From the IMG/VR virus record IMGVR_UViG_3300037247_001169, positions 8,881 to 72,880 of that record: a stretch of DNA of 64,000 nt, one strand, 5' to 3'. Shown here piece by piece: positions 11,825-52,979 of this stretch. Made by a program: the position numbers and the translations under genes. Numbering within the stretch: position 1 is the first letter of the stretch; each line of letters opens with the position of its first letter. This DNA is from a virus. The notes beneath the pieces were generated by a model, which did no database searches, was not told where the DNA came from, and saw nothing but the letters and a program-made list of their open reading frames with translations.

Positions 11825-13288
11825 TCACTGCTCCAATATGCGCTTGGCGATTTCCAGTTCGCGCTGCTGCGTCTCGTCGAGTTGTCGTCCGCCTTCCAAT
11901 AGGCTCACATAGAAATCGAACACGACACGTGCTTCGTCGCGATGCTGCTCAATCTTTTCAGGCGGCCATGTTTCGATATTCGGCGACTTCTGCACCGCCG
12001 CTTTCAGCTTGGTGGCGGCTTCGTTTGCGGTCATCTCCTCGGGAAATTGCTGCCTCTCCATCTCCTCCTGGATCATCCGCTCCATATTTTCGGGAGAGGT
12101 CCCTAGTAGGCCTCTAACCGTAACCCTTTCAGCAGTCTCGTAGGCTTGCTGCATTTGCTCCCGGGTAGGAGTCATCGTCCCCAAAGTCGAGACGCCAAGG
12201 GCGTAGTTTTCGTTCAACCGATTAAGGTATTGTGCTCTCGGGATGCTCACGCCCAACGACGGAATCTCGATGTCCGTATCCCTGTCCGTCAGCGTATCGA
12301 CGCTGACCGTCATCTCCCCGTCCCGGCCGATCGACAGCCTTGGCTTGAATCCCGCCTTCATCCACGCTTCGAGGATTGGCTGCGCCTGCTTAACCTGTTC
12401 GGCTGCTGACGGCGGCTGCTTGCGAACGAGTTTCATGGGGAAGTTCGATGGGTCTTCGATGTCACCGGCGATACGGTTGAGGAGTTCGAGTCGTTGCCCC
12501 TGGGGCACATTAGGATCGCCCATCACCGCGTTGTAGTTACGCACGGCCTTGTGGGCTTCTTGTTCATCCGGGACCATATCGAAGTTGTTGAGAATCCCCG
12601 CTTTCTGAAGCGCGGCGTTCATCCGCGTTTGGGCGTCTGCCCGGCCCCTCTGCTGCCTCTCTTGCTCTCGCACGCCTCGAATGCGCTCGGCGCCCGCCTG
12701 GAAATCGCCTTGCCCGGCCTCGGTTATCACCTCACGCGAGGCGCCCAACTGCTGAGCCATCTGGCCCTCGAAAACGCTTTGGGCCCGTTGGGCGGCCTGC
12801 TGTTGAGCGACTTGCCCGGCGTACTGTTCGAGCGGAATACCCTCTGCCTTGGCCTGCGCGGTGAACGCTCGGGTAGTCGTTCCCAGGCTCGTGGCCAGTT
12901 TGGAAATCTCGCTACGATCGAGTTTCGTTGGTGCGAAGCCGAATTGCTGAATGTCCTCCTGCTTTTGAAGGAGTGTCCCAATGCCCTCGGCAGCCGTGGC
13001 TACGCCACCGGCGACGTCCCCGCCAACGATCTGGCTGCCCACCATGCCGCCCAAGCCCGCGCCCTGGGCCGCGCCCGCCAGAATCGTCGTCCCCCCGATA
13101 GCGGGTCCAAGAAAGGCGCCGCCAATGCCGCCAACCACTGCCCCACCGAGCGTTCCCACGAGCCGTTGCTGCCTCGCCACCCGTTCCGCATTGCGGATCT
13201 CGGATTGCAGTCGTTGATATTGCAAGACGCTGAAAAAATCGGCGACTGCCTGATACCGCGGGTCCCGGAACGTGTTGATTGTAGGCAT
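11825..13288 (-). CDS. Internal virion / ejection protein
   Basis: 487 aa, N-terminal glycine-zipper hydrophobic segment, helical remainder, synteny. Confidence 0.55.
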   Translation of the reverse strand: MPTINTFRDPRYQAVADFFSVLQYQRLQSEIRNAERVARQQRLVGTLGGAVVGGIGGAFLGPAIGGTTILAGAAQGAGLGGMVGSQIVGGDVAGGVATAAEGIGTLLQKQEDIQQFGFAPTKLDRSEISKLATSLGTTTRAFTAQAKAEGIPLEQYAGQVAQQQAAQRAQSVFEGQMAQQLGASREVITEAGQGDFQAGAERIRGVREQERQQRGRADAQTRMNAALQKAGILNNFDMVPDEQEAHKAVRNYNAVMGDPNVPQGQRLELLNRIAGDIEDPSNFPMKLVRKQPPSAAEQVKQAQPILEAWMKAGFKPRLSIGRDGEMTVSVDTLTDRDTDIEIPSLGVSIPRAQYLNRLNENYALGVSTLGTMTPTREQMQQAYETAERVTVRGLLGTSPENMERMIQEEMERQQFPEEMTANEAATKLKAAVQKSPNIETWPPEKIEQHRDEARVVFDFYVSLLEGGRQLDETQQRELEIAKRILEQ

Positions 13289-13300
13289 GGCCCGAATTTC

Positions 13301-14350
13301 CTAGCCGCCGCCGAACCCCGGCTGAATCTGAACATTCCGGAAACCGCCCGGTCCCAGGCGGTTGATCGAATTGATGAATCCCAACCCCTGTTCGAGCCCC
13401 TGCATTCCCATAGTCAGCGGCAGTTGCCCGAATCCCATCAGGTTGTTCATCTGGTCGACGCCGGCCTGCTGAAGCATGCCCATTTGGCCCATGCCGAATC
13501 CGCCCAGCTGGCCAAGCGACTGTAGCCCGACGTTGGCCCCGAGACCGGCACCGAACTGTCCGACGCCGAGCTGTTGGCCAAGGAGACCTTGTCCGAGGCC
13601 GGTTCCCATGCCCAGGAGCTGCTGCTGGGCGCCGAGCTGCTGGCCGGTCAGTCTCTCGTTTGCGGCCGCGGCCGCACCGCCGAACTGGCCGAGTATGCCG
13701 ACCTGCTCACGCCGCAAACGCTCTCCCAGGCCACCGAGTGCCTGGCCACGCTGCGCTTCGACGCCGCGCTGAATTGACGCGGCCCCGGTAGAAGCGGTAA
13801 ACCCGCGCTCCTGAAGGTTGGCCGCCTGCTGAGCACCAAACTGGTCGAATCGCCGGTTGATGTCCGCCTGCTCCTGTTGCCCGAGTCCGGCCGACATCTG
13901 CTGCGCCTGACGGAAGAGATCCTGGAATTGCCCGCCGACCTGACCGGTCCGTTGGCCGAAGTTGCGCATGAGGCTTTGGCCACCAAGGCCGAACTGTCGC
14001 TGCAGCGCAGATGCTCCGCCGGAAGCAAGCTGGTTGAGCCCGGCCGTCTGCTGGCCAACCTGGCCGGGAAGCCCCTGTAGGCTCTGCATGGTAGAGCCCA
14101 TGAATCGCTGGAAGTTCTGGTTCTGCGCGCCCTGGCTGAACAACTGGTTCCCGGCCTGCATGCCTTGGTTGGCGAGGCCCTGGGCTTGCCCGAAGAGTTG
14201 TCCGACATTCGGCGTCCCGCTGATGAGACCCATGCCGCGATCAATGTCGCCTTGCTGCGCCTCCATCACCTGTTGCTGGAGTTTGCGATCCTGTTCGCCG
14301 AAGAACAGATTCATTCCAAGGCCGAACAGCGGACTGCCGTGAAAAGGCAT
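13301..14350 (-). CDS. Gln/Gly-rich DNA pilot/ejection-like protein
   Basis: 349 aa Q/G-rich; GAGGTGA RBS; synteny. Confidence 0.55.
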   Translation of the reverse strand: MPFHGSPLFGLGMNLFFGEQDRKLQQQVMEAQQGDIDRGMGLISGTPNVGQLFGQAQGLANQGMQAGNQLFSQGAQNQNFQRFMGSTMQSLQGLPGQVGQQTAGLNQLASGGASALQRQFGLGGQSLMRNFGQRTGQVGGQFQDLFRQAQQMSAGLGQQEQADINRRFDQFGAQQAANLQERGFTASTGAASIQRGVEAQRGQALGGLGERLRREQVGILGQFGGAAAAANERLTGQQLGAQQQLLGMGTGLGQGLLGQQLGVGQFGAGLGANVGLQSLGQLGGFGMGQMGMLQQAGVDQMNNLMGFGQLPLTMGMQGLEQGLGFINSINRLGPGGFRNVQIQPGFGGG

Positions 14351-14364
14351 AACTCACCTCACTA

Positions 14365-15033
14365 CTAAAAAAAGCGTTGCTGGCCCCGAAACTGCTTACC
14401 GAACCCTTGACCGCCCATTCCCGGCACACCCTGCATGAACGACAACCCGCTCATGAGGTTCTGCATCATTCCCGGCATCTGACCGGCACCGGCGGCCCGA
14501 CTCCGCATCATGCCTTGAAGCAATGCCGGATCGACCTGTTGACCGGGAACGAGTCCCGGCTGCGCCATGCCCTGCTGACCGGCCTGTAGTGGGCCCTGGC
14601 GAATGGGAAGGGCGAATCCCTGCCCGCCTTGTTGTTGCCCAAACCCCGCCAACTGACGCCCTCGATTCTGTGCCACAGATTGCTGCTGAGCCGTTGGGCC
14701 GAAGAACTGTCCAAGTTGACCTTGCGACAACTGTTGGCCGGGCATGCCCGGCTGCTGGCCCGCCATCCCGGCTTGGCGCCGCATGAACATCTGAAGCATG
14801 TTACCCATCGGATTGCCCATCATTTCAGGTTGCCCGCCCGGCATGCCAAACGGAGACATTTGCTGTTGCGGCTGCCCGAACATGCCAAATGGCGACTGCT
14901 GCTGCCCGAACATCTGCTGCACCTGTCGCTGCATGGGCATGAACTGCTGTTGCCCTTGACGCATTCGCGCTTGCCCGCCCTGCCCCTGAAGCTGCGACAT
15001 CATGCCAAACATTGGATTGCTGAAAAGCGACAT
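14365..15033 (-). CDS. Gln/Met/Gly-rich low-complexity protein
   Basis: 222 aa; same 16-nt RBS leader as 13301..14350. Confidence 0.6.
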   Translation of the reverse strand: MSLFSNPMFGMMSQLQGQGGQARMRQGQQQFMPMQRQVQQMFGQQQSPFGMFGQPQQQMSPFGMPGGQPEMMGNPMGNMLQMFMRRQAGMAGQQPGMPGQQLSQGQLGQFFGPTAQQQSVAQNRGRQLAGFGQQQGGQGFALPIRQGPLQAGQQGMAQPGLVPGQQVDPALLQGMMRSRAAGAGQMPGMMQNLMSGLSFMQGVPGMGGQGFGKQFRGQQRFF

Positions 15034-15047
15034 AACTCACCTCACTT

Positions 15048-15419
15048 TCAACCGATGACCGCGTGCGGACGGCCGTCCCCCAATTCCGTCGGGTCCGTAT
15101 CCCAATCCCATGTAACACGCATGTCGTATCCACGGAACGCCGGATCGTAGAGCCCGTGCTCGAATGGCCAACCAATGACACCACCGGCCGCCTCCAGCGT
15201 CACCTCCAGAAGCATGTCGGTGAACGTCACCGGGGCCCTGCCATACGCGACCTCGATCCTCGTGTTGTCGAAAACGTGGTTGACCCAGTTATGGCCAAGC
15301 CACCAGAGCACGAGTAAATCGTCGTCATTCGCAGCTTCAACGAGGACTTTCGCGTGGGTGCCTTCCCCATCCCCGATGTAGCCTTTGGCCGCATATCGCG
15401 TATTGGGTAATCCAAACAT
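15048..15419 (-). CDS. Small virion protein (paralog of 15427..15774)
   Basis: MFGLP start and W.f.hGLYDP motif shared with neighbour. Confidence 0.65.
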   Translation of the reverse strand: MFGLPNTRYAAKGYIGDGEGTHAKVLVEAANDDDLLVLWWLGHNWVNHVFDNTRIEVAYGRAPVTFTDMLLEVTLEAAGGVIGWPFEHGLYDPAFRGYDMRVTWDWDTDPTELGDGRPHAVIG

Positions 15420-15426
15420 CGGCCAC

Positions 15427-15774
15427 CTACGAAATACCCGTACAACGCCCCGTAACATTCAGTTCCTTGTCAGTGCTGCCGTCTAACAAGGTTACAACGA
15501 TTGCAGTGCCGATCTCTTCCGGGTCATACAGCCCTTCCGGCCACGTCCAGTGGTAGGCGGTCGTGTCTATGATGTCTATGTCCAGTAGGGTCGTTGACCC
15601 CTGCACGATGGTAAGGTTCCCGGACACCGCCGTCGCATAACCAAATGTCACACTATACACCGCAGGAACCCCATCGGACGACGTGGCCAACGTGAGTACC
15701 GCGTCGGACCCGGTTGCGACCGTCCCCTTGGCCTTACCGTAAACGGCCGTCTTGGAATCGGGTAATCCGAACAT
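15427..15774 (-). CDS. Small virion protein
   Basis: MFGLP start, WTWPEGLYDP motif, AGGAG RBS. Confidence 0.65.
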   Translation of the reverse strand: MFGLPDSKTAVYGKAKGTVATGSDAVLTLATSSDGVPAVYSVTFGYATAVSGNLTIVQGSTTLLDIDIIDTTAYHWTWPEGLYDPEEIGTAIVVTLLDGSTDKELNVTGRCTGIS

Positions 15775-35415: not shown

Positions 35416-35621
35416 GCAAGCAAACTTTCCCGCACACGAACTACGATTGCGGCTGTCAATTTGTCCCGCGTGACGACGGTTGGGCGATTTGGACTATGTG
35501 CCCGCTGCACGAGGCCGCCCCCGACCTGCTGGCAGCGTGCAAGGCGTTCATGTCCGGCCCACCAGCGGGCGTAGTCGGAAAGATGCGGGCCGCCATCGCC
35601 AAGGCCGAGCCCGACGCATGA
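35412..35621 (+). CDS. Hypothetical protein with APDLLAACK...AAIAKAE module
   Basis: AGGAGG RBS, ATGA overlap. Confidence 0.6.
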   Translation: MSKQTFPHTNYDCGCQFVPRDDGWAIWTMCPLHEAAPDLLAACKAFMSGPPAGVVGKMRAAIAKAEPDA

Positions 35622-35872
35622 CCGGCAACCCCCACAAGAAAATGGGTCCGGCCCCGATCGAAGGGGAATACCTCACCAAACAGCAGATGATTCGGTTAGA
35701 CCCGACGCTCGAGGAGGCGATTGTCAATCGCGCAGGACAACGGTCGTTCGCCGCATGGATCAGGTGGGCGGCAAGACGGGCGCTGGGTCTACCCGAACGC
35801 CAGCCGGAGCCCCGCGCCGACAGCAGCGAGGATGGCGGCCGCAAAGACCCCTCGGAGCCAACGGCGGTTTGA
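35618..35872 (+). CDS. RHH-like DNA-binding protein ending cassette 1
   Basis: QMIRLDPTLEEAI-NRAGQRSFAAWIRWAARRAL beta-helix-helix pattern. Confidence 0.55.
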   Translation: MTGNPHKKMGPAPIEGEYLTKQQMIRLDPTLEEAIVNRAGQRSFAAWIRWAARRALGLPERQPEPRADSSEDGGRKDPSEPTAV

Positions 35873-36112
35873 CGTCTGGTCCACTTCGTGCTCGTCGCGC
35901 GACTCCTCGAGGCTGGCTGTCCGCGCCATCAGGCCGAGTTTGTCATTGTACCCGCGAATCGCCTTGTCGATCCGGTGGACCGTGGCCTTAATCTCCTCCG
36001 TGTCCTTTGTCAACGTCCCGATACCAGCTTCCAACATCGAGATCCGGCGGATGTGGTCCATGACCTGGTCACTGCTCGCGCCACAGCTCGGCGTTGATGG
36101 TGCTTTCGCCAT
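35789..36112 (-). CDS. Coiled-coil plus C-terminal TM protein (XhlA/holin-like)
   Basis: 107 aa; promoter TTGACC-17-TAGGCT lies 6 nt upstream of the ATG. Confidence 0.5.
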   Translation of the reverse strand: MAKAPSTPSCGASSDQVMDHIRRISMLEAGIGTLTKDTEEIKATVHRIDKAIRGYNDKLGLMARTASLEESRDEHEVDQTSNRRWLRGVFAAAILAAVGAGLRLAFG

Positions 36113-36162
36113 GCCTCAAGCCTACCTCATGTACGGATTCGGGTCAAGTTGGGCTGGAACCG

Positions 36163-36785
36163 AAACCCGCTCGTACCTTTTGGTTGCCTCGCTGAGAGTG
36201 GCACACTCGAGCCTTTTGGTTGGCTTCCGGTTTTTGACTCGCTTCCGCCAGATGGTTGACTCCGGCATTCTGGCTCGCTCGGGATCAGTGGGTGCCTGAT
36301 GAAGCGTGGCTCGCTCCGCGGCTCTGGTTGCCTAAGTCCTCTGTGGCACGCTTGACTCGTGTGGGTCCCTTCTGAATCATGGCTCGCTTACGCAGCTTGG
36401 GTGTCTACTGGCGAATGGCTCGCTCGGCTCGCCCTGGTTGCCTTGTACAGCGTGGCTCGCTCCGAGATTGTGGGCGCCTTCGTCTATCTGGCTCGCTTGT
36501 ATTCGATGGTCGCCTTGCTTATTCTGGCTCGCTCCGATCTTCTGGTTGCCTCTCAACGTTTGGCTCGCTCTCACCGAATGGGTGGCTGTTTCGGCCTGGC
36601 TCGCTTACGCTCTGTGGTTGCCTGAGTCATCATGGCTCGCTCCCGCGTCCTGGTGGTCTCGGAAAAACTGGCTCGCTCCCGCGCGTTGGTTGTCTCAATC
36701 CGCTTGGCTCGCTTACTGTACCTGGTTGTCTGTGCTGCACTGGCTCGCTCGTCACAAATGGTCGCCTTTCGCGCCATGGCTACGC
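36163..36785 (-). ncRNA. TIGR-like dual-repeat guide array downstream of tas (~16-17 units of 36 nt)
   Basis: Minus-strand AGCGAGCCA-N9-AG(G/A)CAACCA-N9 periodicity; edge repeats at + coordinates 36199, 36235, 36271 ... 36741, 36777; spacers differ between units. Confidence 0.9.
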
Positions 36786-37823
36786 AACGTGAACCTTGCC
36801 CAGCTTAGCCTCCGAGTACGGCGGGGCAACCTCCAGACCCTCAATCTCCCGCCATGCCTTGTACAGATCGATCAGGAACATCTTGATCATGTACCGGATG
36901 GCCATGTTGTGGCGCCTCAGCTTGGACGTCACAATGTGGCCGTCCTCATCCTTTTTCTTGTCGTTGTGGATGCCGTACTTCGTGTGAGACTCCATCCGGT
37001 GCTTGTAGTCGTAGTAGACCTTCGCGTAGGGCGAATCGCCAGCACGAAGGAACGACGCCCCGAGCACTCCCACGAGCTTCGTTTTCAAGAACGGGTTGAA
37101 CGTGATGCCCATGCGGGTCGCGGGCTTCCCGTCCTTGTCCTTGTATTCGACCTCGCGCAAGTGCTCCTTTTTCTTCGATCGGCCGCTGCTCGCCGCCTGG
37201 TAGCGAGCTACCGACAGATCGTCAACGATCAGCAGAAACCCGTTGCCATGCTCAGACATCTTGGCGTTGGGCGGTGGGCCGATGAAGGCCCTTGGGACCG
37301 TCACGTCTTCCGTGAACGTCTCCACAAGAGTCCAGTAGGTTACGCAATCAAGCCCAGCGTAGGCCCACATGCTCGACGGATACCGCGCCTTGTGGATGTC
37401 GAACTCGCTGACGATGACACCGGCCATTGCCGGGCCGACTCCCTTGACCTTCAACAGGAACTCATTCCAGATTGCGAATTCCGTCAGAATCCTGCCTAAC
37501 CTGGAGAAATGGTCCGTCTCGGCTTTCTCCAGGCCGACGTATTGGGCCAGCAGACACAACTCCGTGTACGTGCTGATCACCTCGTCGCCCTTGAACGTCG
37601 CTTGCCTCGGGAACGTCGTCACGCCGTCCGTCAGCTTCTTGTACCGCATACGAAGATCGGCGAGTACCGCTTTGGCGTCCTCTTCGATCTCCTCTTCTTT
37701 CTCGCCCGGCTTCTGGCCGAGCTTCGCCTTGAAGTTTCCTACGATCCGATTGCCCATCTGGATTCTGAGCTTTTGGATGTCGTAGGCTCCGCGGACTACG
37801 GTCCGCAATTGTTCACGTTGCAT
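36780..37823 (-). CDS. tasA: TIGR-associated Nop-domain protein without a visible nuclease domain (TasA-like; IS110-related)
   Basis: YDIQKLRIQMGNR coiled-coil start, L-VKGVGP--AG, SS-WAYAGL, FNPFLKT-L, Y---Y-DYK-R, H--A-RYMIK-FL-DLY--WR--EGL; no N-terminal DEDD/RuvC domain; flanked by 36-nt arrays. Confidence 0.85.
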   Translation of the reverse strand: MQREQLRTVVRGAYDIQKLRIQMGNRIVGNFKAKLGQKPGEKEEEIEEDAKAVLADLRMRYKKLTDGVTTFPRQATFKGDEVISTYTELCLLAQYVGLEKAETDHFSRLGRILTEFAIWNEFLLKVKGVGPAMAGVIVSEFDIHKARYPSSMWAYAGLDCVTYWTLVETFTEDVTVPRAFIGPPPNAKMSEHGNGFLLIVDDLSVARYQAASSGRSKKKEHLREVEYKDKDGKPATRMGITFNPFLKTKLVGVLGASFLRAGDSPYAKVYYDYKHRMESHTKYGIHNDKKKDEDGHIVTSKLRRHNMAIRYMIKMFLIDLYKAWREIEGLEVAPPYSEAKLGKVHVA

Positions 37824-37840
37824 TCCGTTGCTCCTGAAAA

Positions 37841-38351
37841 GGGTTCGCTTTGCCGTTTTGGGTGTCTAGTTTGTGGTGGCTCGCTAATCCGCACTGGGCT
37901 CCTCGTGGACTTTGGCACGCTCATTACTTCCGGTTTCCTCCCAGCACTTGGCTCGCTTAACGCTCATGGCTGTCTTTTAGCTCTTGGCTCGCTCTTGGCT
38001 TCTGGTTGCCTCTCAACGTTTGGCTCGCTTGTCACGCGTGGGTGACTGCAACACTCTGGCTCGCTTCGTACACACGGGCGTCTTGCCTCCAATGGCTCGC
38101 TTTCACGCTCTGGTTGTCTACGATGACATGGCTCGCTCGTGCTCACTGGGTGCCTTAAGCCAGCTGGCACGCTCTTTTCGGTTGGTTGACTGTACTCGCT
38201 TGGCTCGCTCGTGTTCTGTGGTAGCCTCACGCGCGCTGGCCCACTTGGTCACCTGGTCGCCTTTGCAATTCGGTACGCTTGATGTTCATGGTTGCCTTTC
38301 AGATCCTGGCTCGCTAAGTAGCCTTGGGCGACTCCGAACCTATGGCTCGCT
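37841..38351 (-). ncRNA. TIGR-like dual-repeat guide array upstream of tas (14 units)
   Basis: Same repeats; edge repeats at 37841, 37877 ... 38237, 38271, 38307, 38343; one 34-nt unit. Confidence 0.9.
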
Positions 38352-38393
38352 CACCCGTGCCCCTTCTCCGTCATCCACAGGACCGCCACACCG

Positions 38394-38582
38394 TCAGTCG
38401 TCCTCAGCCTCACGCCCCGCTTGTTCAAGACGCGCTTGGATATATTCGTCCTCGCAGCACGCCATCGCGCCCCAGTCGGGATTCGCCGAGCCGCCAACCG
38501 GTTCACGCGTCTTCGTGTCCATCGTGTACAACGTGCCGCACTCAGGACAAATCCAAATCTCAGTTGGCGCTTGCCAGATCAT
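38394..38582 (-). CDS. Small Cys-rich protein
   Basis: CPECG...CC; ORF directly upstream of the array. Confidence 0.5.
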   Translation of the reverse strand: MIWQAPTEIWICPECGTLYTMDTKTREPVGGSANPDWGAMACCEDEYIQARLEQAGREAEDD

Positions 38583-38585
38583 AGT

Positions 38586-38981
38586 CTACGTCATCCCGCC
38601 GTCAGGCGCCGGATTCTCCGCCCGCACATACGTCCCATCGTTCGTCGGCGCCCGGCGGCGCGCTATCGTCATGTCCCCGGGTCGGCGCTTGACGGCGGGC
38701 GCGGGGTTCTCGGGGATTAACGCCCAGATTTCGGCCGCATTACATGGGGCGTAGTTGCCAGTACCGTACACGTGCGTGCGCCGGTGGCGGTCACCACTAA
38801 CTGCGTATCCATCGCGACACCACGTGCACACCGCCTTCGCCGCCGCTTCGAGGGCGTTGCGTTGGATGTCGCGGAATTCCTCCAGTGCCACATAGCCGGG
38901 GGCAACCCGACGGCCTGCAATCCATCGCCCTCTGGAGAATTTGCTACTCCACTCCTTCGCCGTTACCAGCCCGGTCGTCAT
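38586..38981 (-). CDS. Hypothetical protein (RDIQRNA...LIP.nPAPA family)
   Basis: ATGA overlap; motifs shared with 38978..39301. Confidence 0.55.
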   Translation of the reverse strand: MTTGLVTAKEWSSKFSRGRWIAGRRVAPGYVALEEFRDIQRNALEAAAKAVCTWCRDGYAVSGDRHRRTHVYGTGNYAPCNAAEIWALIPENPAPAVKRRPGDMTIARRRAPTNDGTYVRAENPAPDGGMT

Positions 38982-39301
38982 GGTTTCACCTCGCCTGCGG
39001 GCGCCGGGTCTTTCGGTATCAGCTTGCGAATCGCATCAGCGCAACTATGCCGCGTTAGCTTCGCTGCCTGAATAGTCACACGGTTTTCCACGATCACGAT
39101 GTCCTCAACCGCCTCCGCCGCCCTCTCGAGCCAGTGCTGCGCGACGTTGCGTTGGATGTCGCGGACCGTCGTCAGCATCCGCGCACGCCACTCGTGGGCT
39201 GCCGGCGAGTCTTTGCCGACCCCCCACGTCATCGGCGAGAAGCCGGACTCTTCCAGGTCCTCGACGATGTCTTCCGCCGTTATCAGATCGGTCTCGGTCA
39301 T
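38978..39301 (-). CDS. Hypothetical protein (RDIQRNV...LIPKDPAPA)
   Basis: AGGAG RBS; motifs shared with neighbour. Confidence 0.55.
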   Translation of the reverse strand: MTETDLITAEDIVEDLEESGFSPMTWGVGKDSPAAHEWRARMLTTVRDIQRNVAQHWLERAAEAVEDIVIVENRVTIQAAKLTRHSCADAIRKLIPKDPAPAGEVKP

Positions 39302-43569: not shown

Positions 43570-44136
43570 TTATTCTGCCGATAGGACGACACCAACACGG
43601 TTCTTGGCATTGCTCAATTCGTCCCAGTCGACAAACAGAAATTCGTTTCCATCTGTCGGGTTTTTGCGACTATGGCGTCTGATCCATGCACCGTCGCCGA
43701 GATGCGCCCCGACGAACTCGTACAGATCCTTCGTGTAGCATATTCCGGCAGCCAAAAAGGCTCCCCGCCGGCGCGGTTCTGCGACGTATGCGTGTACTGT
43801 CAGCGTAGGATATAACCATCCAGAACGGATGGCGTCTATTCGCTTTCGCAGCTCCGTCTCGGCGCCCGTCGTCCGCTTTGACCGTATCGTGAACGTATAC
43901 CACGGCTCACCCCATTGCACGCGACTCGCCAAGCCCCTCATACGGCCATTCGCTTGCTGGATATGCCATCCGTCTATGCCGGCCAGCGTATCCAAGCATT
44001 GGCTCAAACTCTTCTCCGTCACGCTTTCAACCGCCACCAAAGTTCCATCTCCGCATTTGCCCTTGATCGCGGGCCACACAACCCGCTCGAAATCGTAGGC
44101 ACTATCGCTAAGGTCGCATGCAATGTCACTCCGCAT
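43570..44136 (-). CDS. Hypothetical protein coupled to methylase (possible nuclease fold)
   Basis: LD-LAGID-W...G-ASRVQW...FTIR..R.TG..TE; overlaps methylase stop. Confidence 0.55.
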   Translation of the reverse strand: MRSDIACDLSDSAYDFERVVWPAIKGKCGDGTLVAVESVTEKSLSQCLDTLAGIDGWHIQQANGRMRGLASRVQWGEPWYTFTIRSKRTTGAETELRKRIDAIRSGWLYPTLTVHAYVAEPRRRGAFLAAGICYTKDLYEFVGAHLGDGAWIRRHSRKNPTDGNEFLFVDWDELSNAKNRVGVVLSAE

Positions 44137-45310
44137 GCACGTCCACTCCGCGCTCTTCTGCGATATCGCACATCTCACGCGAGCTATCGCATCCGAGCCC
44201 GATGCGACCTAGCTTTTTCGCTGCGAGCAAGAACGTCCCCGTCCCGGCAAATGGGTCTACGATGACCCCACCCTCGGACGTGCTGTGACGTATGAACCGC
44301 TCGGCCAGCACGTCTGGCTTCTGCCATTCGTGAAAGCGGTCGCCCTGACGACCGTCCGGGGCACGAACGTCCTGCACGCTCCAACGTTCGTTGTGGATCG
44401 GACAGTTCAGGTCTGGCGCATCCCCCCCGACGAAGTAGAGGACCGCTTGCCAGTTGGCCTTGTAGGCGCCCTTCAGTGACGGACCCAGCGTATTGCGGTA
44501 TGTCCACACCAGGACCTGGGCGAGCGACACGTCAGCACATCGTTGGGCCGCCCCAAAATAGGCGTGAAGCTCCACCGGATAGGCGCCGATGCAGACGAAT
44601 GCTCGGCCGGTTGGCTTGACGTGCTTGATCGCTTCGGGCAACCAGGCGTTGGCGAAAGCCTCGATGTCCGGTATGTCCGTAGCGTAGGGCGGGTCCGTCA
44701 ACAGCAGGTCGCATTCGGGCTGCTCGCCGAGCCAGTCCTCCCAGCCAGCAAGATGCAATTCGGCCTTGCCTTTGGCGGTCCCCGCCGCCTGCTTTTGAAG
44801 GTACAGAACGTCGGCCTGAGCCAGCGTCGTACACTTGCCGTCCTTGACGGCCTTGAAGATGGCCTTCTGTCGCTTCCGGTCATCGTTCAGGCGAGCGAGA
44901 CGATACACGTCGCCGGTCTTCAGTACCCGTCCGGTGGCGGATGCTAGGTCTATCCAGCCCTCGCGTAGCTCCCCGAGGACGTGTACGCCCTGCCAGCGAG
45001 ATGATTGCTTATGGTTGATGCCTAGATCTAAAAGTGGGCTGCCTTCTTGGCAGTCCACTTTTTTGCCTACCCCGCGGGCACCATGCTGCTTAGGTATATC
45101 CTCCAGCAGCTCGCCAGCTCGGCCCTCAGCCCGTATCCTGAGCTTGCAGACCTCATCTTGAACCTCGCGGGTTTCGCCGATCTCGCGGGCGTAGGTTTGC
45201 AGCGCCTTCGACTTGTCGATGATGACCTTCACCTCTGGGATCGTGGTCGCCTGCGACAACGCCGACCGCATCGCGTCGTAAGCTACTATGTTTGTGTCTG
45301 CTTTAGCCAT
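44126..45310 (-). CDS. DNA methyltransferase (N6-adenine/N4-cytosine, beta class) with N-terminal extension
   Basis: DLLLTDPPY, H-WQKP, DPFAGTGT motifs. Confidence 0.88.
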   Translation of the reverse strand: MAKADTNIVAYDAMRSALSQATTIPEVKVIIDKSKALQTYAREIGETREVQDEVCKLRIRAEGRAGELLEDIPKQHGARGVGKKVDCQEGSPLLDLGINHKQSSRWQGVHVLGELREGWIDLASATGRVLKTGDVYRLARLNDDRKRQKAIFKAVKDGKCTTLAQADVLYLQKQAAGTAKGKAELHLAGWEDWLGEQPECDLLLTDPPYATDIPDIEAFANAWLPEAIKHVKPTGRAFVCIGAYPVELHAYFGAAQRCADVSLAQVLVWTYRNTLGPSLKGAYKANWQAVLYFVGGDAPDLNCPIHNERWSVQDVRAPDGRQGDRFHEWQKPDVLAERFIRHSTSEGGVIVDPFAGTGTFLLAAKKLGRIGLGCDSSREMCDIAEERGVDVHAE

Positions 45311-45344
45311 CCCTGACTCTCGTTTCACCCTATAGGAAAACAAC

Positions 45345-45544
45345 AAACGCCCCGGCCGAACGCTGGCCGGGGCGCCGTGAAGGATCGACCCGCCGCACGC
45401 ACGGCGGGATCGTTCACAAATGAAAAGCCGCCGCTGGGCTTGAGCTGATTGGCACCAGAGTCACCCGAGACGGCGGCGTCGAAACCTAATTGTACCAACT
45501 CTAGTGCCATAATTCTAGCCTACTACATTCTCGGACGTTTGCAA
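45345..45544 (-). promoter_or_regulatory. Promoter plus attenuator-like leader 2 upstream of methylase/replication genes
   Basis: TTGCAA-16-TAGGCT; 5' TGGCACTAGAGT complementary to ACTCTGGTGCCA inside GCCGCCG/CGGCGGC-TTTT terminator; two more hairpins follow. Confidence 0.6.
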
Positions 45545-51302: not shown

Positions 51303-51375
51303 GGGCCGGTGCGGGATTTGAACCCGCGTCTTAGGCTCTCCAGGCCCACGTTGTGCCAGACTCAACCAACCGGCA
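51303..51375 (-). tRNA. tRNA-like gene with GGA (Ser) anticodon and short variable loop
   Basis: TGCCGGT-TG-GTTG/CAAC D stem-TGGGC CT GGA GA GCCTA-AGAC-GCGGG TTCAAAT CCCGC-ACCGGCC; no encoded CCA. Confidence 0.75.
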
Positions 51376-51663: not shown

Positions 51664-52701
51664 TCATTTGCCAATCTCCTCAAAGGTAAGTTGTCCGTCT
51701 ACGTCTGCTATCACCGGCAACGGCTCGGGGTTGGATACCCGATGCCGCGCCTCTTCCACTCGTCTGTGCATAAGCTCCGCTTGCGATTTGCGGAGGTCGA
51801 TACCGATTGAGTTGCGTCCTGCGAGAATCGCCGCCGCAAGCGTCGTTCCGGATCCGCCGAACGGGTCAAGCACTACACCGTCTGGCGGGCAGAAGCTGCG
51901 GATCCAAAAGTCTGCCAGGGACTCGGGAAACGGTGCTTCGTTTTCGTGAGCTAAGTCGGAGCCCATGTGCCCCTTGCCCACCGTGCAGGGAATGAAGTCC
52001 ATCGCCTCGAATGGAATGACGTTGCCGGGGTTTGCTTTGGACGGCGGATCGTAACCCGTCGCATGGCAGCCGTCCGGTCGGCGGCTCTTATTGCGTACCC
52101 GGCCTGCCTCTGTGACAACGTGCGACGGCCGCTTGTGAGTGTCGCGTGTACCGTCCACCTTGCGATGCCCCACCGCGCCTTCGCATCCGCCCCACTGATT
52201 GCGGCGGGTGCCATCCGTAAGCCGATGACTCATCGCGCCGCCCGGCGCCCACCTCGGAGGATGTCCCGCCGCCGTGTTGTCTGACCAGGGCAGTTTCCCG
52301 CGCTTCCGCGTCGCACACACGATGAACTCGTAGTCATTGCGAAGCCAATCGGGACCGCCGCTGCCAGGGATTCCGACACGATGGAATGCGGACGGCTTAC
52401 GCAGGAACATGCCGCACTTCTGGAGTTTTACGGCCAGGTGAAGAGGTGTAGCAGAGTACGAGTAATTCTTGGTCCGCCCCTCGACCACCCACGCTACAAG
52501 CCCCTTGCACACGCGCAGGCACTCGCGGAAGCGCACGAAGGCCCACTCGACCCATTCCGAACCCTCAAGTTTGAAATCGACCCCGTAGGTCCGCGCTGCC
52601 TCATAGGGCGGCGAACCGAAGACCAGGTCTACGGAATCCGTCTTCATCGCCCGCATCTCTTCCAGAGAATCACCGATTAGGATGGTCGTCTCAGCGGTCA
52701 T
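51664..52701 (-). CDS. DNA methyltransferase (N4-cytosine/N6-adenine, beta class)
   Basis: SVDLVFGSPPY, APFPESL, VLDPFGGSGTT motifs. Confidence 0.9.
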   Translation of the reverse strand: MTAETTILIGDSLEEMRAMKTDSVDLVFGSPPYEAARTYGVDFKLEGSEWVEWAFVRFRECLRVCKGLVAWVVEGRTKNYSYSATPLHLAVKLQKCGMFLRKPSAFHRVGIPGSGGPDWLRNDYEFIVCATRKRGKLPWSDNTAAGHPPRWAPGGAMSHRLTDGTRRNQWGGCEGAVGHRKVDGTRDTHKRPSHVVTEAGRVRNKSRRPDGCHATGYDPPSKANPGNVIPFEAMDFIPCTVGKGHMGSDLAHENEAPFPESLADFWIRSFCPPDGVVLDPFGGSGTTLAAAILAGRNSIGIDLRKSQAELMHRRVEEARHRVSNPEPLPVIADVDGQLTFEEIGK

Positions 52702-52979
52702 GCCTTCACCGTCAACACGCATTCCAGCGGGCCGCCGCCGGGCCTAAGCGTCATGCCAGCCTTGCGCAAGTAGCGAGGTCCCAGTTCTACGCACAGCGAC
52801 GTGACGAAATCGCAACCCGACGGTTCAATCCACTCCGTACTATCGCGAGCACCACGTATGGGTTTAGTGCCGATGTATACTTCATAGCGGCAATCCTTCG
52901 CCGTCGACCGAGCCCAGTTCTTGGATCGCCGCGTTAACCACAGCGTCATCGTTTCCGGCTTTGCTTTCTTCTTACTCAT
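52698..52979 (-). CDS. Hypothetical protein
   Basis: GAGG RBS, ATGA coupling. Confidence 0.5.
   Translation of the reverse strand: MSKKKAKPETMTLWLTRRSKNWARSTAKDCRYEVYIGTKPIRGARDSTEWIEPSGCDFVTSLCVELGPRYLRKAGMTLRPGGGPLECVLTVKA

Follow-up and report, generated by a model that had tools for sequence, protein, structure and literature searches.

A probable TIGR-TasA system with 31 guide units in a tailed phage from marine sediment

What kind of system is encoded by a single gene that lies between two arrays of short alternating repeats in a phage genome? The question is raised by a locus at positions 36163-38351 of a 64-kb stretch of DNA (the window), which corresponds to C1:8881-72880 of the whole virus record IMGVR_UViG_3300037247_001169 (72,880 bp) and comes from a tailed phage of marine-sediment origin. 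A first reading of the letters alone (the original prediction) had taken the locus for a phage-encoded TIGR-Tas-like RNA-guided system. Our analysis leads to the same place: with a probability of about 0.85, the locus is an intact dual-repeat TIGR-TasA system that is carried by the phage and acts by the mechanism proposed below. The parts of the locus, in window positions, are the following:

36163-36785, minus strand: downstream TIGR array of 17 units (D1-D17), register-tolerant parse
36163-36171, minus strand: terminal edge repeat of the downstream array, truncated at its 3' end
36777-36785, minus strand: first downstream edge repeat, GCGTAGCCA, degenerate, holding the TAG stop codon (36780-36782) of tasA
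36780-37823, minus strand: tasA gene, 347 aa, coiled coil plus Nop domain (open reading frame (ORF) listing, NCBIfam, AlphaFold2, VIA)
36789-36818, minus strand: codons Y336-H345, C-terminal loop with a candidate Tyr/His dyad for pre-tigRNA processing
37185-37346, minus strand: codons for residues 160-213, beta-rich, lineage-variable insertion in the Nop domain (alignment, AlphaFold2 model)
37824-37840, minus strand: 17-nt gap between the upstream array and tasA, containing AGGAG, a likely ribosome-binding site
37841-38351, minus strand: upstream TIGR array of 14 units (U1-U14), register-tolerant parse
37841-37849, minus strand: terminal edge repeat of the upstream array, degenerate
38343-38351, minus strand: first edge repeat of the upstream array

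On both flanks of the gene the minus strand carries the same 36-nt unit: the edge repeat AGCGAGCCA, nine nucleotides of spacer A, the loop repeat AG(G/A)CAACCA and nine nucleotides of spacer B. The edge 9-mer has 23 exact copies in the window, all within 36100-38400 and all on one strand, and its reverse complement has no exact copy in the window; seven of the eight exact loop 9-mers of the window fall in the same interval. The 36-nt periodicity and the unit form claimed for both sides of 36780-37823 were thus borne out to the base. About 30 guides had been counted, 14 upstream and roughly 16-17 downstream, and the parse gave 14 and 17, that is, 31, with outer ends at 36163 and 38351 exactly as read before. 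The upstream array, said to stop some 17 nt before the ATG, stops at precisely that distance, and the edge repeat placed over the stop codon does contain the TAG. Ten of the 14 edge repeats of the upstream array are exact, and 28 of the 31 units measure exactly 36 nt, the exceptions being U3 (34 nt), D10 and D13 (37 nt each).

The information content computed on the 28 units of exactly 36 nt confirmed that the repeats are conserved and the spacers variable. Repeat positions hold 1.3-2.0 bits, save three central loop positions at 0.3-0.8, while spacers hold 0.0-0.2 bits at 17 of 18 positions, the last position of spacer B reaching 0.7. Edge and loop repeats alike open with AG, at the position of box D, and close with the CCA of box C, each of these positions holding 1.6-2.0 bits. 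An extra C3-G6 pair is possible in the edge repeat, and the loop repeat is rich in A at its centre; an extra edge-repeat pair and an A-rich loop-repeat centre are described for TasR (PMC12045711). Tandem Repeats Finder did not report the arrays, which is expected because half of each unit is random sequence.

This layout is the one published for TIGR arrays, in which two alternating repeats of 8-12 nt separate 9-nt spacers upstream and/or downstream of a tas gene with a Nop domain, the array ends in a truncated edge repeat, and processing yields 36-nt tigRNAs (PMC12045711). In the same description, box C (CCA) precedes each spacer and box D (UG) follows it, and divergence is allowed if edge and loop covary (PMC12045711). 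Arrays upstream of, downstream of or flanking tas are also described by Xu et al. 2026 (bioRxiv 10.64898/2026.09.09.750476), whose survey counts 20,096 tas loci and 4,126 arrays of the dual-repeat type.

The protein encoded between the arrays was assigned to the Tas family by three comparisons. The curated NCBIfam equivalog NF052498.1 (TIGR_Tas_endo, 'TIGR-Tas system RNA-guided endonuclease') matched with 116.3 bits against a cutoff of 100 (E 1.8e-33), aligning residues 6-325 with profile positions 1-215 of 215. In a phmmer search of the PDB sequences, SpTasH was found at E 6.6e-9 and the TasR entry 9mty at E 4.3e-6. An AlphaFold2 model built on 47 homologs (predicted local distance difference test (pLDDT) 84.8, predicted template modelling score (pTM) 0.76) was compared with the PDB by Foldseek, where ranks 1-10 were all TasH or TasR chains with probability 1.00, followed by IS621. 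VIA re-alignment of 601 Foldseek-ranked chains gave top Z scores of 19.8, 19.1 and 18.7 for TasH/TasR, the TasH alignment (Z 19.8) covering 217 residues with a root-mean-square deviation (rmsd) of 3.1 A and 24% identity, and the TasR alignment (Z 18.7) covering 193 residues with an rmsd of 2.0 A. The IS110-family recombinases IS621 and ISCro4 followed at Z 13.3-13.5, and all other chains scored 3.9 or less. The dimerising coiled coil and the Nop fold of the solved TasR and TasH structures are thus matched by the predicted fold. In the hidden Markov model (HMM) and structure comparisons that the original prediction had proposed, the kinship proved to be with Tas proteins and more weakly with IS110; the Pfam Nop family was not matched.

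The structural alignments start at residue 1, opposite TasH residue 66, and at residue 3, opposite TasR residue 111. They begin after the HNH domain of TasH and the RuvC domain of TasR, and the protein therefore has just two parts, a coiled coil and a Nop domain, as in TasA. Pfam found no nuclease family at E ≤ 1, with Transposase_20 and HhH as the only sub-threshold entries, which agrees with the earlier view that neither a DEDD/RuvC nor an HNH motif is present. Judged from the model, the protein fits the nuclease-free TasA type. The identification as a TIGR array with a nuclease-less TasA was upheld by the dual-repeat layout described in PMC12045711, by the curated HMM and by the fold, and the phage origin by a virus record with terminase, head and tail matches.

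A further likeness to known dual-repeat systems is found at the C-terminus. The loop ...PPYSEAKLGKVH aligns with the SpTasH loop that bears Y289 and H296, with Y336 opposite Y289. All 47 aligned sequences have both Y336 and H345, and these two are among the 48 columns invariant across the 47 homologs, every one of which the phage protein retains. In SpTasH, Y289 and H296 are reported to form a metal-independent catalytic pair for pre-tigRNA processing (PMC13421893), and a C-terminal Tyr/His processing loop is reported as present in dual-repeat Tas and absent in stem-loop Tas (bioRxiv 10.64898/2026.09.09.750476; PMC13421893). By analogy with SpTasH, Y336 and H345 may play the same processing role.

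The association of such a gene with 36-nt arrays is a property of the family. Among 4,058 candidates, 2,277 proteins belonged to the family at E ≤ 0.001, and 103 homolog loci were drawn from IMG/VR, metagenome-assembled genomes (MAGs), metagenomes and GenBank. Arrays with a 36-nt period were present in 95 of these 103. At least three double matches of box C-N9-box D occurred on the gene strand in 43 loci and on the opposite strand in one; for the other 59, the commonest 7-mer spacing was 36 nt in 48 and 72 or 37 nt in four. Eight of the 103 had no array by either test: in seven none of these spacings was the leading one, and one had opposite-strand matches only. The exact same two repeats were found on 20 further IMG/VR contigs, three of which (L116, L120 and L121) encode a TasA 52-57% identical to the present protein. 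The closest protein relatives, 84-88% identical, are on short metagenome contigs, and metagenome loci among the matches listed encode TasA relatives with 54-59% identity. None of the spacers of the window recurs among 463 units of 51 other loci.

Among 50,697 GenBank phage records the only match was ORF034 of Ralstonia phage phiRSL1 (NC_010811.2, 13180-14217), annotated as a 'transposase', which is a TasA homolog with 36% identity over 98% of the protein. Within positions 13180-15640 of that genome, the unannotated DNA directly after ORF034, about 1.3 kb long, forms a 36-nt periodic array on the gene strand. The phiRSL1 repeats are 8 nt long (AG....CC) with spacers of about 10 nt, and there is one downstream array and no clear upstream array; spacer boundaries are ambiguous because the repeats are shorter and more degenerate. 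The small ORFs 031-033 lie just upstream of ORF034. The main text of Faure et al. 2025 (PMC12045711) does not mention phiRSL1.

Compared with characterised systems, the locus resembles dual-repeat TIGR-TasA systems such as FpTIGR/FpTasA of Flavonifractor plautii in its solo Nop protein, dual short repeats, 9-nt spacers and 36-nt unit, and also in arrays that may flank the gene on one side or both, in the CCA box C and in the phage carrier (PMC12045711). FpTasA binds 36-nt RNAs, TasA is the commonest effector and phages are the commonest carriers (Faure et al. 2025, PMC12045711). Three differences from the published description of the FpTIGR type are the AG in place of UG as box D of both repeats, the 31 units as against 'most often 5 to 15', and a 54-aa beta insertion in the Nop domain, the last compared by description and not with the FpTasA sequence (PMC12045711). 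MbTasA, from a Minisyncoccota bacterium, is likewise nuclease-free; it binds its DNA target and, with no cleavage, represses reporter genes as well as chromosomal ones, and this guide-dependent binding and repression is the activity that, by analogy, may be expected here (bioRxiv 10.64898/2026.09.09.750476). That paper is centred on stem-loop arrays, and MbTasA was compared by its description (bioRxiv 10.64898/2026.09.09.750476). SpTasH of Salicola phage CGphi29 (PDB 9vzx, 9w03, 9w04, 21kl) shares the coiled coil and Nop fold, the dual-repeat arrays and the aligned C-terminal Y...KLG..H loop, but it has an N-terminal HNH nuclease (residues 1-65, unmatched here) and cuts DNA; it also has about 20 residues where this TasA has about 90. 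TaTasR (PDB 9mty) matches in the Nop domain and the dimerising coiled coil, and has a 36-nt tigRNA and a CCA box C, but differs in its N-terminal RuvC nuclease (residues 1-110, unmatched).

From the published work on TasA, TasH and TasR, the following mechanism can be proposed. The arrays would be transcribed into long precursors together with the early/replication gene block of the minus strand, and a TasA dimer would cut the precursor inside the edge repeat by means of the Tyr336/His345 loop, giving about 31 tigRNAs of 36 nt. Each target site would be read as spacer A and then the reverse complement of spacer B, an order that follows from the 8-nt 3' overhangs and the 'C - 5' rule of TasR cleavage, in which gaps of 1-2 bp are tolerated (PMC12045711). 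The nuclease-free complex would then stay on the DNA and block transcription or replication.

Several observations count against an intact system of this kind. Box D is AG here and UG in the TasR consensus, the AG of both repeats being a covarying variant of box D. In U3 both spacers are 8 nt long, D10 and D13 each have one 10-nt spacer, and U1, U8 and U13 have loop repeats with 3-4 mismatches; given these degenerate units, the working guides may therefore number fewer than 31. H345 lies two residues past the position aligned with H296 of SpTasH. A promoter and terminator scan of the minus strand around the arrays found nothing convincing. The assembly of the phage record is imperfect, the TIGR locus itself being within its single-copy part. 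To these points is added the outcome of the target searches.

The original prediction had proposed a search with 18-mers built from the two spacers, and no match above decoy or chance level emerged in the phage record, in related loci or, for three guides, in IMG/VR. The search of the 72,880-bp record took in each of the 31 guides, in two target geometries and, for comparison, two decoy arrangements, allowing gaps of 0-2 and up to four mismatches. Neither geometry gave a match at one mismatch or fewer; the two geometries together gave two matches at two mismatches and 11 at three, the decoys none and 16, and over the range of 2-4 mismatches the guide counts equal the decoy counts. In the 103 related loci (523 kb) there was likewise no match at one mismatch or fewer, and two-mismatch matches were as common in decoys. 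The three IMG/VR scans, which took in guides U10, D7 and D5 of the 31, returned one exact match for U10, none for D7 and one for D5 (with a 2-nt gap). This is chance level, the background from a 16-fold degenerate pattern with 13 matches being about 0.8 per 18-mer. What TIGR-Tas systems target in nature, and where their spacers come from, are named as open questions in the literature (PMC12045711; bioRxiv 10.64898/2026.09.09.750476). The targets of this phage most likely lie outside its own record, on the chromosome of the host or on competing mobile elements, and this is the least certain step of the interpretation.

The same searches bear on an improbable alternative, that the TIGR-TasA system regulates the phage's own genes as a life-cycle switch. 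Such a role is among those proposed in the discussion of bioRxiv 10.64898/2026.09.09.750476, and the position of the locus between replication/recombination and structural genes would suit it. Against it, with gaps of 0-2 allowed, neither geometry gave any of the 31 guides a match to the record with at most one mismatch, and matches at 2-3 mismatches number 13 in both geometries against 16 in decoys. As there is no close match in the phage record, self-regulation through well-matched sites is unlikely.

It is very improbable that the locus is a decaying, non-functional remnant in which arrays and gene persist unused. Several degenerate repeats, the three units that depart from 36 nt and the lack of targets in the phage record, the related loci and the IMG/VR scans would be in line with decay. 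Against it stand an intact gene with 48 of 48 invariant columns kept and 23 exact edge repeats, and degenerate units near array ends are described as normal for TIGR (bioRxiv 10.64898/2026.09.09.750476).

A whole or fragmentary RNA-guided transposase of the IS110 type, accompanied by repeated sequences that resemble bridge RNA, would account for the label 'transposase' that PHROGs and GenBank give to homologs, and we regard it as scarcely credible. The label appears in the match to phrog_4285 (E 1.5e-34) and in the annotation of the phiRSL1 homolog, Transposase_20 reaches 18.5 bits, and the fold matches IS621 with Z 13.3. The RNA-binding coiled-coil/Nop-like domain is indeed common to this TasA, IS621 (PDB 8wt9) and ISCro4 (PDB 9t56), but the phage protein is without the DEDD/RuvC catalytic domain and the serine-containing C-terminal domain of the IS110 family, and the match spans only residues 126-315 of IS621. 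The NCBIfam profile NF033542 reached 18.9 bits against a cutoff of 140, at profile positions 119-264 only, the Pfam score for PF02371 (Transposase_20) is below the cutoff of 21.3, and PF01548 did not match. IS110 elements have a single bridge RNA and not an array, as against the 31 units found here, and TasH and TasR are matched far better.

That the arrays encode 12-residue repeat proteins, the case which the original prediction had named as its opposite, is refuted by the sequence: although 36 nt equal 12 codons, ORFs of up to 137 aa occur inside the arrays (the longer ones extending outside) and some database homologs carry N-terminal extensions of translated array, each array has 3-9 stop codons in each of the six frames and is therefore not coding, units of 34 and 37 nt break any frame, and the spacers, flat at 17 of 18 positions, have no three-base pattern. 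The homologs P0034 and P0050 have N-terminal extensions of about 100 residues with a period of about 12 residues, which are translated TIGR array; the gene callers therefore took the array for coding sequence.

Two other classes of system were considered and rejected. Box C/D small nucleolar ribonucleoproteins (snoRNPs), built on Nop5 or Nop56/58, have fibrillarin and L7Ae as partners and use K-turn guide RNAs. Here Pfam Nop (PF01798) was not matched at E ≤ 1, Rfam returned no family, small nucleolar RNAs (snoRNAs) included, at E ≤ 1 over 35500-39000, and neither fibrillarin nor L7Ae appeared among the 20 flanking ORFs (27.6-47.3 kb) scanned with Pfam, no search having been aimed at them. CRISPR-Cas loci have a single repeat of about 25-36 nt, spacers of similar length and cas genes. 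The repeats here are two alternating 9-mers with 9-nt spacers, and the same 20 ORFs contain no Cas gene in Pfam (the PADLOC library was not searched).

With the TIGR-TasA reading in place, the arrays themselves give some indication of how guides arise. U10 (37994-38029) and D7 (36534-36569), on opposite sides of tasA, have an identical spacer A and agree at 5/9 positions of spacer B, 14/18 in total, a similarity matched by one of 1,000 column shuffles. The 40 non-redundant loci that have the repeats of this locus contain 2,126 intra-locus unit pairs, of which 11 differ at no more than 5/18 positions, where 500 within-locus shuffles gave a mean of 0.43 and a maximum of 4, and the rate between loci was 9 in 50,902. 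The 11 pairs fall in nine of the 40 loci (this window, L062, L094, L107, L109, L115, L117, L119 and L120), and the related units are 2-15 units apart. The excess suggests either block duplication and divergence of TIGR units or guides for variant alleles of one site. A full-text literature search, with supplements outside its scope, found no published report of related guide pairs, and their excess within arrays goes slightly beyond the papers compared.

We tentatively consider, as a possible but doubtful extension, that the 31 guides serve a nuclease-free multiplex silencing of the host or of rival phages, and that arrays grow by internal copying and mutation, not by capture. If true, 'spacer acquisition', which the field counts among its unknowns, would amount to internal duplication followed by divergence. 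In a separate observation, spacer B of D10 (36425-36434) contains GCGAGCC and spacer A of U5 (38192-38200) starts with AGCGAG, both resembling the edge repeat, which hints that some spacers, such as these two, may derive from slipped or duplicated repeats.

The beta-rich insertion in the Nop domain is 54 residues long in this protein and 54-95 residues long in 18 of the 47 aligned homologs, this protein included, as against 5-6 residues in the other 29. Its strands are confidently predicted (block pLDDT of about 90), and it adjoins a hairpin conserved in the family. VIA and ESM Atlas searches gave no family or fold match for it. For residues 156-244, the ESM Atlas returned nothing at 0.9 or above by features and nothing above a template modelling (TM) score of 0.39 by structure, and among the 601 VIA chains the only listed row inside the insertion was the lectin-type bacteriocin 4gc1_A, with Z 2.6. 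The dual-repeat Nop core has been called compact, with minimal variation (bioRxiv 10.64898/2026.09.09.750476). That the Nop domain of dual-repeat TasA has a hot-spot of recurrent insertion (18/47) goes slightly beyond the papers compared.

TIGR-Tas systems are compact RNA-guided DNA binders, free of any need for a protospacer adjacent motif (PAM), and are of current interest for genome engineering. They are already published, repression by TasA has already been demonstrated, and the form most often published is a phage-borne TasA with dual-repeat arrays. The locus by itself adds no new mechanism. What it offers is a clean and unusually long TasA example, with 31 units, in a near-complete phage genome, suited to a target search once the host or co-occurring phages are known.

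The locus lies downstream of a replication/recombination block and upstream of a structural block. PHROG matches on the minus strand comprise the large terminase subunit, major head, tail and virion proteins, most of these four being weak, together with two DNA methyltransferases, a RecT-like protein, two exonucleases and a primosomal protein. With the 20 flanking ORFs compared with Pfam and the nearest 10 also with PHROGs, only the DNA methylase at 44126-45346 could be named, and neither a ParB-like nor an adaptation gene was seen among the flanking ORFs examined. For the terminase, IMG/VR contains no close relative (two matches, the better one 28% identical), and the TasA homologs give no host signal, as they are spread over MAGs of many phyla. 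The neighbouring features are:

start at 36112, minus strand: next ORF beyond the downstream array
44126-45346, minus strand: N6/N4-type DNA methyltransferase gene, with an unassigned N-terminal region of about 200 aa weakly matching phrog_33995
51303-51375, minus strand: tRNA-Ser, anticodon GGA, the sole phage tRNA and a possible clue to the host
51664-52722, minus strand: N6/N4-type DNA methyltransferase gene

The first ~14 kb of the record (C1:1-14251) are collinear with C1:50004-72394 (41124-63514 of the window), with 75-97% identity and offsets of 50-58 kb. Despite its rating as 100% complete and linear, the record looks like about 1.3 genome lengths in which two strain variants have been joined. 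The RecT and exonuclease genes appear twice because the start of the record repeats near its end.

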